64,000 bases of DNA from Escherichia coli (GTDB taxonomy: Bacteria > Pseudomonadota > Gammaproteobacteria > Enterobacterales > Enterobacteriaceae): the NCBI RefSeq assembly GCF_030013595.1, contig NZ_CP122768.1; one strand, written 5' to 3'. The notes below the pieces were generated by a model that worked only from the letters and a program-made list of their open reading frames with translations, was not told where the DNA came from and searched no databases. How positions within the stretch are numbered: position 1 is the stretch's first letter; the number at the start of each line of letters is the position of its first letter. Below are positions 15,367 through 16,298 of the stretch, piece after piece. A program made the position numbers and the translations under genes.

Positions 15367-15375
15367 GGTTAAGTT
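15367..15375. repeat. right 9-bp target-site duplication of IS10 (GGTTAAGTT)
   Basis: Identical to 14029..14037. Confidence 0.85.
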
Positions 15376-15482
15376 TTGCTAATCATGATGAGCTATTTTT
15401 GATAGTACATCCTGTGGCGTCGCTCTTAAACTTATATTGTAAATGACTTAGATTTAAATGAGATAATAATTTTGTTAACAAT

Positions 15483-16298
15483 ATGAGGCGGGAGATGCTT
15501 TCTACAAACTTAATACAGAGTAATTATGGTGATTTAAATATTAAAAGCCTGGCTTTCGACTCTTTTAAAGAAAGGCTGCAGTCTACTATGACAGCACTCA
15601 CTTTCTTTATATCAACGGGTCAATGTGACTGCGATGAAATAGCAGAATCAAACTTTAATTATATGATTGCCTATATGTCTAACATTAACTATGATGCCTC
15701 AAAGCTAGGAGCGCCAGCACTTAGTTTTGATACATATCTGCAGGACAATGTTAAATATAGAGTAATAATTAATAATCTTTATGGTAGTGAAATTAGGATA
15801 AGAGGTATTAATGAGAATTTTGTTGGGATGGATTTTACCTGTGAATTCCGACCAGAAAAAATGACCAATTTGATCAATATAAAAAACAGGTTGGTTATTC
15901 ACTATTTAAGAACGATATACTATGAACAAAATTATATACATCCTGTTGGGAGCATTTTTGCTGCGATTCAAAAAAATGAGAGTCTCCTAAAGTTTCCTTC
16001 GGTAATATCAATGCTTAATGTCAATCTTCTTTTTAATCCACTGAATCTTCCGGGAATGGGAAGTGGTGTGCTTGAAGAGATTATGAGTATTTCAGATAGT
16101 TCACTTAGAAAACGTCTTGGGTATGAGGTTTTAAGCTTCTCGCTACAAGCACATTCATTGAGTCAGGAATGTATCGATAAGTTAGCCATTTTTTTCGCTG
16201 ACGATCTGTTTAAATATGAGTCAGTATGCATCGCCGCGATGGAACATTTAAAAAGTAAGGCAACGGCCCCTATACAAAACGGACCGTTGCCAGCATAA
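15483..16298 (+). CDS. ydjO: uncharacterised protein YdjO
   Basis: 271-aa ORF, markedly AT-rich; recognised as K-12 YdjO (true start may be the internal MLSTN…). Confidence 0.75.
   Translation: MRREMLSTNLIQSNYGDLNIKSLAFDSFKERLQSTMTALTFFISTGQCDCDEIAESNFNYMIAYMSNINYDASKLGAPALSFDTYLQDNVKYRVIINNLYGSEIRIRGINENFVGMDFTCEFRPEKMTNLINIKNRLVIHYLRTIYYEQNYIHPVGSIFAAIQKNESLLKFPSVISMLNVNLLFNPLNLPGMGSGVLEEIMSISDSSLRKRLGYEVLSFSLQAHSLSQECIDKLAIFFADDLFKYESVCIAAMEHLKSKATAPIQNGPLPA

Follow-up and report, generated by a model that had tools for sequence, protein, structure and literature searches.

The closest described counterpart of this locus is ydjO of Escherichia coli K-12 (b1730, NP_416244.2, 'protein YdjO', uncharacterised), which lies at the same position between cedA and tcyP, has the same 267 codons, and carries the same promoter hexamers and 3' hairpin. 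The two differ in that K-12 lacks IS10 here and that the alleles are 96.6% identical in DNA over the interval, with 14 non-synonymous differences; the allele studied here matches the one in a pig isolate at 100% identity, so the K-12-like background assumed in an earlier note on this DNA does not hold. More broadly, the locus resembles H-NS-silenced xenogeneic islets and 'promoter islands' (Panyukov & Ozoline 2013, PMC3661553), with which it shares low GC content, a foreign signature and many promoter-like hexamers; xenogeneic silencing of AT-rich islets is described by Navarre et al. 2006, as cited in PMC9330008. The K-12 ydjO/cedA spacer is reported to be H-NS-bound, a 'promoter island' and predicted foreign DNA (PMC3661553, PMC3946193), the occupancy coming from the Kahramanoglou and Oshima data sets in the form tabulated in PMC3661553, and ydjO carries an 'HNS' mark in PMC3946193; these published K-12 data agree with the H-NS association proposed in the earlier note. 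Compared with typical H-NS-silenced islets, that of ydjO is tiny, consisting of a single gene, and lacks both mobility genes and an identifiable donor; it is also older than a typical strain-specific island because a homologue is present in E. albertii.

Three further systems concern the insertion sequence. In the bgl operon (PMC9678765, PMC11043490), IS1 or IS5 likewise lands ~100 bp ahead of a promoter whose gene is bound by H-NS and normally silent, and activates it; here, in contrast, the element is IS10, its outward promoter faces away, most of the AT-rich DNA that binds H-NS, namely the gene body, is unchanged, and activation is only a candidate effect. IS10 itself activates otsBA (PMC2744996) and acrEF (as cited in PMC9330008) after insertion into the promoter region, with pOUT reading into the activated gene, whereas here pOUT is directed at cedA and the end facing ydjO is the inside end. 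Finally, H-NS-bound DNA is a transposition hotspot in which IS elements pile up in AT-rich sequence, as they do here (transposon capture; Cooper et al. 2024, PMC11335895); capture was demonstrated for the IS5 family, and for IS10/Tn10 only an influence of H-NS on targeting and the transpososome is cited.

We describe below the anatomy, insertion polarity, distribution, selection, decay and IS orientation of the ydjO locus in a window of 64 kb, by which we mean the whole stretch of DNA analysed. The locus is a commonplace example of a familiar pattern, namely a slowly decaying, AT-rich foreign orphan gene on which IS elements preferentially land. We consider it probable that the islet is Escherichia-restricted and in decay, and that its IS10 reflects transposon capture by H-NS-coated DNA with little or no activation of ydjO. 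Its weight for fundamental biology is small; it is a textbook-style example, reportedly H-NS-bound.

Table 1. Features of the ydjO locus (positions in the 64-kb window).
Feature	Position	Strand	Remarks
cedA	13605..13868	+	core gene, left flank of islet
Left part of cedA-ydjO spacer	13869..14037		34.3% GC; now split from ydjO by IS10
cedA-proximal hairpin	core 13880-13898		-19.2 kcal/mol; in cedA-ydjO spacer
Direct repeat, left copy	13969-13979		GACGATCTATT; in cedA-ydjO spacer
Target-site duplication	14029..14037 (left); 15367..15375 (right)		GGTTAAGTT, perfect 9 bp
IS10	14038..15366	+	complete, 1329 bp; outside end 14038, inside end 15366
RNA-OUT antisense RNA (marks pOUT)	14083..14152	-	RF00240, 98.8 bits vs gathering score 41
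IS10 transposase ORF	14145-15353		intact, 402 aa
19-bp block	15388..15406		ATGAGCTATTTTTGATAGT; candidate regulatory site, still attached to ydjO
Sigma-70 promoter-like site	15443..15470	+	ATGACT-16-AATAAT; predicted; matches published ydjO hexamers
ydjO CDS	15495..16298	+	267 aa, RefSeq-style ATG; intact in this strain
ydjO sites mutated elsewhere	15849-15851; 15970-15976; 16189-16195		codon 119 CGA; A7 tract; T7 tract
Direct repeat, right copy	16200..16210		GACGATCTGTT; used for ydjO deletion in Escherichia sp. MOD1-EC7003
tcyP putative intrinsic terminator	16245..16291	-	hairpin 16259-16291, then TTACTTTTTAAATG; within last 14 codons of ydjO
tcyP (ydjN)	16302..17693	-	core gene, right flank of islet

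An AT-rich insertion between cedA and tcyP

The earlier note had put the GC content of ydjO and its upstream spacer at ~35%. We found 34.7% for positions 15367-16298 against 48.9% for the whole window, making this the lowest-GC of all 932-bp intervals in the 64 kb, only 0.67% of which reach ≤36% GC; the ydjO ORF has 35.5% GC and the 116-bp spacer between IS10 and ydjO 28.4%. Codon usage, too, falls outside the host norm, as GC3 is 32% in ydjO versus 52-57% in tcyP and katE, and rare codons account for 9.4% of ydjO versus 1.3-2.0% of its neighbours. The high-affinity H-NS motif TCGATAAATT shows no enrichment across the window (9 matches vs 6.1 expected), and two overlapping one-mismatch matches lie inside ydjO.

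Empty cedA-tcyP sites were compared in ~45 non-Escherichia Enterobacteriaceae, four other Escherichia lineages and sampled ydjO-less E. coli. Without ydjO, cedA and tcyP are convergent direct neighbours ~50-110 bp apart (a few are further apart), and the spacer carries a single bidirectional terminator composed of an A-run, a hairpin and a T-run. Homology with ydjO-less E. coli breaks at 16295-16301, homology with genomes lacking ydjO starts at the tcyP stop codon, and the last codons of cedA (EGEVTE) are those of the allele linked to islet presence. Because the outgroups show cedA and tcyP to be ancestrally adjacent, with one bidirectional terminator, ydjO is, on comparative grounds, an insertion of ~1.1 kb relative to the ancestral junction. 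This polarity across Enterobacteriaceae supports the earlier view that ydjO was horizontally acquired, a term used here on the basis of insertion polarity and composition. No homologue was found on phages or true plasmids, and the islet ends show neither an integrase nor repeats. A plasmid or phage donor was likewise rejected, as phages gave no matches and three "plasmid" matches turned out to be chromosomes of 4.8-4.9 Mb.

The reverse polarity, with ydjO already present in the Escherichia ancestor and later deleted wherever the site is empty, draws on a divergent ydjO homologue at the syntenic site in E. albertii (40% amino-acid identity, alignable in frame, next to a CedA that is 92% identical) and on a deletion remnant in Escherichia sp. 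MOD1-EC7003, which demonstrates that real ydjO deletions occur. Yet the terminator spacers at the empty sites of E. coli, E. whittamii and other Escherichia lineages are mutually homologous, and Citrobacter, Salmonella and Enterobacter have the same cedA-terminator-tcyP architecture. Moreover, the empty-site spacer sequence is missing from ydjO-bearing genomes, so that islet deletion cannot have regenerated it, and one known deletion, that in MOD1-EC7003, left recognisable islet ends. We thus give secondary deletion only the slenderest of chances. A 70-bp remnant in strain ES4 was considered as an islet boundary and rejected, as it derives from an IS1-mediated katE-to-ydjO deletion and is not an ancestral empty site. 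A full-length E. albertii homologue was also sought, but its contig breaks off within the gene, and the partial sequence, when used as a protein query, matched just one fragment of 79 aa.

Under the insertion reading, an AT-rich, Escherichia-only islet of ~1.1 kb would have replaced the short bidirectional-terminator spacer between cedA and tcyP, and would have brought or evolved two replacement terminators, one after cedA and one inside the 3' coding end of ydjO. Its product would be a soluble 30-kDa orphan protein under moderate purifying selection. As published for K-12, and as we infer for this strain, the islet would be bound by H-NS like other AT-rich foreign DNA.

An orphan gene under selection and in decay

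A GAGG Shine-Dalgarno sequence lies 6 nt upstream of the ydjO ATG at 15495, and an alternative upstream ATG at 15483 would extend the product to 271 aa. The earlier note described the product as an orphan devoid of recognisable motifs, and both points were borne out: searches of Pfam, NCBIfam, PADLOC, PHROGs and PDB sequences gave no family match, and no homologue outside Escherichia was detectable among 1.84 billion representative proteins. The structure model is of low confidence (pLDDT 52), and a literature search that included locus tag b1730 found no published phenotype. YahL and YjfZ (DUF2686), other published E. coli-specific signature proteins of ~270 aa, were rejected as paralogues, as BLASTP gave no alignment for YahL and E ≥2.2 for YjfZ; membership in DUF2686 was rejected as well, the Pfam model not matching YdjO. 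The sole 'distant' match, P0032 (26% identity, E = 3.5e-33), proved to be an artefact encoded by E. coli DNA in which A and G are exchanged (384 A>G, 268 G>A, 9 A retained). This purine-swapped contig is public and SRA-derived, and it generates a false "distant homologue" of YdjO in large protein libraries.

Because dN/dS among intact alleles is 0.14-0.29, ydjO is, as judged from its coding sequence, a real gene; it is dispensable despite this moderate purifying selection. That it might instead be a non-functional chance ORF, kept open by drift in AT-rich junk DNA, would fit the lack of homologues, domains and a published phenotype, the poor structure model and the frequent pseudogenisation or absence of the gene. 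Such an origin is nevertheless highly improbable in view of the dN/dS values, the 62 non-synonymous versus 53 synonymous differences that separate the most divergent pair of alleles, a 267-codon frame kept through 21% amino-acid divergence, the in-frame E. albertii homologue, and the improbability that an 800-bp frame stays open by chance in DNA of 35% GC.

Decay is widespread: ydjO is missing from 1128 of 5426 complete E. coli genomes (21%), and at least 29% of the carriers have a disabled copy, percentages that are not population frequencies because the collection is skewed toward clinical lineages. A nonsense mutation at codon 119 is present in exactly 932 genomes and the O157 frameshift (T7 to T6) in 308, and two deletions were also found, in ES4 (IS1-mediated) and in MOD1-EC7003. 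IS-sized splits affect ydjO in 54 of 4298 genomes versus 5 of 5423 for tcyP and 3 of 5423 for katE, i.e., 14- to 20-fold more interruptions than in flanking genes of equal length. Weak selection against insertion, rather than targeting, could explain this excess; relaxed selection would account for it equally well. Across E. coli, ydjO has repeatedly been lost, truncated or interrupted by IS elements.

The alleles are also strongly diverged. In one haplotype, nucleotide divergence of 20-27% is confined to positions 15395-15995, against 1-4% in the flanks, and dS between alleles reaches 0.44 within E. coli. Together with the contrast between YdjO and CedA in E. albertii, the presence/absence polymorphism and a dedicated conserved upstream element, this pattern would suit a conflict gene (defence-, immunity- or effector-like) whose polymorphism is held by diversifying or frequency-dependent selection. 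We judge this very unlikely, since dN/dS lies well under 1 with no excess of amino-acid changes, PADLOC and PHROGs give no match, a partner gene is lacking because the islet carries a single ORF, and the common nonsense and frameshift alleles resemble decay, not balancing selection.

The IS10 insertion and its orientation relative to ydjO

The copy upstream of ydjO is the only IS10 in the window. Its ends match the imperfect terminal inverted repeats CTGA(T/G)(G/A)(A/G)ATCCCCT, and it is 99.2-99.9% identical in DNA to many annotated copies (threshold ≥99%). IS10 belongs to the IS4 family, and the RefSeq label is 'ISVsa5 family'. The target site GGTTAAGTT agrees with the 9-bp consensus NGCTNAGCN, as given in PMC2744996 and PMC4574204, at 4 of the 6 specified positions of the core GCTNAGC, the differences being symmetric C-to-T changes. 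Once IS10 is taken out, alignment of the locus with strain HCP5S3_I2 over 4134 bp is free of gaps and shows 3 substitutions. An IS10 at this site occurs in no complete genome and is hence strain-specific here; counting this window, at least 4 distinct IS10 sites fall within ~2.2 kb at the locus. The element would thus represent a recent, strain-specific and precise insertion into an upstream spacer bound by H-NS.

IS10 ends 116 bp before the ATG at 15483, essentially the 117 bp given in the earlier note, and 128 bp before the annotated ATG. The insertion precedes the -35 element by 77 bp and the predicted start by ~111 bp, and both the promoter hexamers, which were published from genomic SELEX (PMC3946193), and the block ATGAGCTATTTTTGATAGT remain contiguous with ydjO. 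The block is invariant between the E. coli alleles and the E. albertii homologue of 40% identity. RNA-OUT and pOUT, placed within IS10 according to PMC9330008 and PMC2744996, read leftward to cedA and away from ydjO.

The earlier note suggested that IS10 could alter the silencing of ydjO; the anatomy argues against direct activation. Because pOUT points away while the promoter and the 19-bp block stay attached, IS10 most likely activates ydjO little or not at all; its largest effect may be to weaken silencing by placing 1.3 kb between the gene and 169 bp of the AT-rich DNA formerly adjoining it upstream.

IS insertions ~80-125 bp upstream of the bgl promoter relieve H-NS silencing, a geometry that the ~111 bp found here resembles. 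IS10 could accordingly de-silence or activate ydjO, either by cutting off the upstream AT tract and disrupting H-NS nucleation or bridging, or by transcription entering ydjO from the inside end. It is well established that an IS landing ahead of a promoter silenced by H-NS can activate it (PMC9678765), the site lies within the published H-NS-bound 'promoter island', and PMC4574204 reports promoters acting outward from either end of IS10. Inside-end transcription would take the form of transposase read-through or a weak promoter: the transposase ORF runs in the same direction as ydjO, with no strong terminator-like site separating the two. Also, ydjO is intact in this strain, while 932 genomes with a closely related allele carry the nonsense codon. 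Even so, activation is unlikely, as pOUT and RNA-OUT face away, no plus-strand promoter-like site was found at the inside end, and H-NS nucleation is still possible on the untouched 932-bp AT-rich ydjO body and 116-bp upstream spacer. Large insertions inside the bgl H-NS loop, moreover, left repression in place (PMC9678765), and an insertion unique to this strain gives no sign of selection. Neutral capture of IS10 by the AT-rich, H-NS-bound spacer is most likely.

The putative tcyP terminator within ydjO

The earlier note held that just 3 bp separate the stop codons of the convergent genes ydjO and tcyP, which encodes a cystine transporter, and that this gap holds no terminator hairpin. The spacing is correct (TAA 16296-16298 for ydjO, TAA 16302-16304 on the complementary strand for tcyP), and the 3-bp gap indeed holds no hairpin; the statement is misleading, however, because a strong predicted tcyP terminator hairpin adjoins it just inside the ydjO CDS. 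This hairpin begins 10 nt past the tcyP stop, is followed by UUACUUUUU, and comprises 11 stacked pairs at -22.4 kcal/mol (z = -4.6; none of 200 shuffles did as well). The 3' end of the ydjO CDS thus contains what is, by structure prediction, the intrinsic terminator of tcyP.

A more elaborate scenario would combine an Escherichia-only, very fast-evolving YdjO family, a dedicated and strictly conserved 19-bp upstream operator at ATGAGCTATTTTTGATAGT, deeply diverged mosaic alleles and a presence/absence polymorphism maintained by conflict-type selection, and a 3' end co-opted as an essential tcyP terminator. Such co-option would explain why independent ydjO deletions end short of the hairpin, but we regard the scenario as a whole as quite unlikely.

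The arrangement bears on the practical use of ydjO. The gene is reportedly promoted as a universal E. coli/Shigella qPCR marker, a use to be set against the finding that roughly one in five complete E. coli genomes lacks it. With the putative tcyP terminator inside its CDS, ydjO knockouts or "ydjO expression" on non-strand-specific arrays can be confounded with tcyP; in one published data set, ydjO reportedly varies together with the CysB regulon.

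Composition and origin of the ydjO islet

The interval from the first base past IS10 to the ydjO stop codon (window 15367-16298) has a GC content of 34.7% (ORF, 35.5%; 116-bp spacer, 28.4%), relative to 48.9% across the window and 52-53% in cedA, katE, and tcyP. A sliding-window scan placed it at the minimum among all 932-bp windows of the 64 kb, bearing out the low GC content that an earlier note had assigned to ydjO and its spacer. GC3 in ydjO is 32% versus 52-57% in its neighbours, and rare codons make up 9.4% versus 1.3-2.0%. The same scan returned another 932-bp stretch at ≤40% GC (window ~36181-37150). 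Between thrS and an outer-membrane-protein gene, a second low-GC patch contains an intact ORF of 632 aa whose C-terminal half is ankyrin-repeat-like; this ORF resembles arpB, a pseudogene in K-12.

Features of the ydjO region and of the second low-GC patch (window coordinates)
Feature	Coordinates	Strand	Remarks
katE	11161-13422	minus	
cedA	13605-13868	plus	
IS10, complete	14038-15366		
RNA-OUT	14083-14152	minus	Rfam RF00240, 98.8 bits
ATGAGCTATTTTTGATAGT block	15388-15406		19 bp
ATGACT-16-AATAAT hexamers	15443-15470		
ydjO	15495-16298	plus	
tcyP/ydjN	16302-17693	minus	
ydjM, hxpB			after tcyP in window order
632-aa ORF	23628-25526	minus	

A CedA scan of species-representative genomes yielded 54 loci. 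In Citrobacter, Salmonella, Enterobacter, Kluyvera, Leclercia, Atlantibacter, and other genera, cedA and tcyP are direct convergent neighbours, usually 50-110 bp apart; they also adjoin each other in E. whittamii, Escherichia sp. E1V33, and two divergent "E. coli" species representatives. Among the scanned loci, only Escherichia sp. MOD1-EC7003 and E. albertii carry a YdjO-like coding sequence. Although ydjO has been described as a qPCR target both universal in and specific to E. coli/Shigella (PMC11057252), even sensitive blastn detects no ydjO in 21% of complete E. coli genomes (1,128 of 5,426); within the window, the site of the published forward primer (ttctcgctacaAgcacattc) contains a mismatch. 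Junctions inspected in three sampled ydjO-less genomes contain a single hairpin between an A-run and a T-run, AAAAAAAC(A/G)CCTGTCGGGATGACAGGCGTTT, a predicted bidirectional terminator. E. coli genomes with and without ydjO lose homology to each other at 16295-16301 on the right and in the last cedA codons on the left, and ydjO-bearing genomes lack the ancestral spacer sequence; thus, the empty state is ancestral, and ydjO represents an insertion or replacement of ~1.1 kb. The cedA 3' end (window 13845-13868 versus comparison sequences L008-L016) reads ...EGEV(T/A)E with the islet and ...ENEVEE with the empty site, a linkage that is perfect in the sampled genomes, other Escherichia species included, indicating that the two states move as haplotypes by homologous recombination.

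The polarity of this insertion, together with published K-12 data, supports the previous reading of ydjO as a horizontally acquired, H-NS-silenced islet. More specifically, the ydjO/cedA spacer is a K-12 "promoter island"; a published table lists it as bound by H-NS in both the Kahramanoglou and the Oshima data sets and links it with genes that Nakamura, and also Lawrence & Ochman, predicted to be foreign (PMC3661553). Upstream of ydjO, a sigma-70 "constitutive promoter" with an H-NS mark was mapped by genomic SELEX (PMC3946193), and its hexamers, ATGACT-16-AATAAT, are present in the window. The locus is a fresh instance of a well-known kind. The window strain is not K-12: over the ydjO interval it shares 96.6% identity with K-12 strains and 100% with the pig isolate HCP5S3_I2. 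The literature assigns ydjO no function, offering one LTEE correlation (PMC10997342) and one SNP, synonymous, in a lactate-evolved strain (PMC2784333).

A predicted transcription terminator at the ydjO-tcyP junction

The convergent ydjO and tcyP stop codons are 3 bp apart, as the earlier note had stated. Its further claim that no terminator hairpin lies between them holds literally, 3 bp being too short, but needs correcting, as ydjO contains a strong hairpin for tcyP at its very end. At 10 nt past the tcyP stop on the minus strand, GGCAACGGUCC...GGGGCCGUUGCC has a folding energy of -22.4 kcal/mol (z = -4.6; none of 200 shuffles folds as well) and is directly followed by UUACUUUUU, which would constitute a canonical intrinsic terminator for tcyP within the last 14 codons of ydjO. 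As the plus-strand fold of the same repeat is weaker (-16.4 kcal/mol) and lacks a U-run, ydjO has no obvious terminator of its own, and its transcripts would continue into tcyP in antisense orientation. Both ydjO and ydjN (tcyP) are listed among the members of the CysB regulon whose expression falls in serum (PMC4145685), a co-listing that probably reflects tcyP read-through antisense to ydjO.

The IS10 insertion and disruptions of other ydjO copies

The element is 1329 bp long, encodes an intact transposase (402 aa), and is flanked by a perfect 9-bp target duplication, GGTTAAGTT. None of the 5,426 complete E. coli genomes carries IS10 at this position, and removal of IS10 and one duplication copy leaves 3 substitutions and no gaps in 4134 bp relative to HCP5S3_I2. 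The insertion is precise, recent, and strain-specific. Its distance to ydjO, previously given as 117 bp, depends on the start codon: an in-frame ATG at 15483 (271-aa ORF, as in the earlier note) gives 116 bp, but 128 bp is more likely, because ATG 15495, the K-12 RefSeq start, is preceded at 6 nt by a GAGG Shine-Dalgarno sequence and is located downstream of the predicted start of transcription.

The position and strand of RNA-OUT, the antisense RNA marking the outward promoter pOUT, place the outside end (pIN and pOUT) on the cedA side, with pOUT directed toward cedA. The inside end faces ydjO, and no promoter-like site was detected there. In documented IS10 activations, pOUT reads into the target gene (PMC2744996; PMC9330008). 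The insertion point lies 77 bp upstream of the ydjO -35 element, leaving the promoter attached to ydjO. Also still attached, 21 bp downstream of the IS10 end, is the ATGAGCTATTTTTGATAGT block (half-sites CTAT/ATAG), a candidate operator that shows no change between the ydjO alleles of E. coli and the homologue of E. albertii (40% identity), the surrounding promoter DNA having diverged. The element shifts 169 bp of upstream AT-rich spacer 1.3 kb away and puts 44% GC DNA in its place; by analogy with the H-NS-silenced bgl operon (PMC9678765), this displacement could weaken H-NS silencing. The main AT-rich body of ydjO is untouched. Given the orientation of the element, the effect on silencing proposed earlier is possible but disfavoured.

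Other ydjO copies are frequently disrupted. Four of six additional alleles are annotated as pseudogenes. The lesions affect codon 119 (CGA to TGA; window 15849-15851), the T7 tract at 16189-16195, which is shortened to T6 with a frameshift in O157:H7, and the A7 tract at 15970-15976, which varies in length. Exact diagnostic 60-/61-mers matched 932 genomes for the nonsense change and 308 for the frameshift, so that at least 1,240 of 4,298 carriers (29%) have a disabled ydjO; the window copy is intact. In 54 of 4,298 genomes, a 935-bp ydjO query matched in two separate places, implying interruptions of ~1 kb or more, versus 5 of 5,423 for tcyP and 3 of 5,423 for katE with equal-length pieces. 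IS10 occupies one identical site inside ydjO (window ~16012-16020 equivalent; duplication TGCTTAATA) in the lab strain BM28 and an unrelated clinical isolate, O177:H21. In strain 2017.06.05CC, it is inserted exactly at the stop codon of cedA (duplication GACTGAGTA). Its orientation in all three genomes matches that in the window. IS1 interrupts ydjO in one other genome. Neutral transposon capture by H-NS-bound AT-rich DNA is the simplest reading of IS10 here (PMC11335895); relaxed selection against insertion would account equally well for the IS excess at ydjO.

In MOD1-EC7003 (L011, 5262-5461), most of ydjO is deleted between 11-bp direct repeats, GACGATCT(A/G)TT, that map to window 13969-13979 and 16200-16210, with both islet terminators retained. 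In strain ES4, an independent IS1-mediated deletion removed katE-to-ydjO and kept the last 70 bp with the tcyP terminator. In these two cases, the deletions end short of the tcyP-terminator hairpin, which is suggestive.

Product, family range, and selection

YdjO is predicted to be an acidic, soluble, 30-kDa protein with no transmembrane segments. In keeping with the earlier remark that it has no recognisable motifs, Pfam, NCBIfam, PADLOC, and PHROGs gave no matches at E values up to 10, and PDB sequences no meaningful match. Every sequence recovered by a word-indexed search of 5.8 billion proteins was from E. coli (≥76% identity), and exhaustive phmmer against 1.84 billion representatives recovered pieces of the ydjO product and, besides these, P0032 alone (26% identity). 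The latter is an artefact: in its source, Logan contig SRR33321306, A and G have changed places in what is otherwise E. coli ydjO-tcyP DNA (384 A>G and 268 G>A changes, with only 9 A retained), and the translated ORF stands in protein libraries as a false YdjO "homologue". No matches were found on phages, and three PLSDB "plasmid" matches (NZ_CP134663.1, NZ_CP141089.1, and NZ_OL790696.1; 4.8-4.9 Mb) are evidently E. coli chromosomes. YdjO shares no similarity with YahL or YjfZ, which were published with it as signature proteins specific to E. coli (PMC11057252). The sole genuine divergent relative is a 32% GC gene of E. albertii NBRC 107761, directly 3' of cedA and syntenic with ydjO, whose product is 39-40% identical over 132 residues, where the contig ends; the adjacent CedA is 92% identical.

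Pairwise dN/dS among intact ydjO alleles is 0.14-0.29. Relative to the hyper-divergent allele of strain L066, the window copy has 62 non-synonymous and 53 synonymous differences (dN 0.10, dS 0.42), and the 267-codon frame is kept in an allele with 21% protein divergence. These ratios and the preserved frame indicate a translated gene under moderate purifying selection. In the L066 haplotype, DNA divergence of 20-27% is confined to 15395-15995, with 1-4% in the flanks and the ydjO 3' third, implying a mosaic locus with old allele classes. A further patch of 8-10% divergence in the katE 3' part (window 12557-12856) suggests several imported recombination tracts near ydjO in L066.
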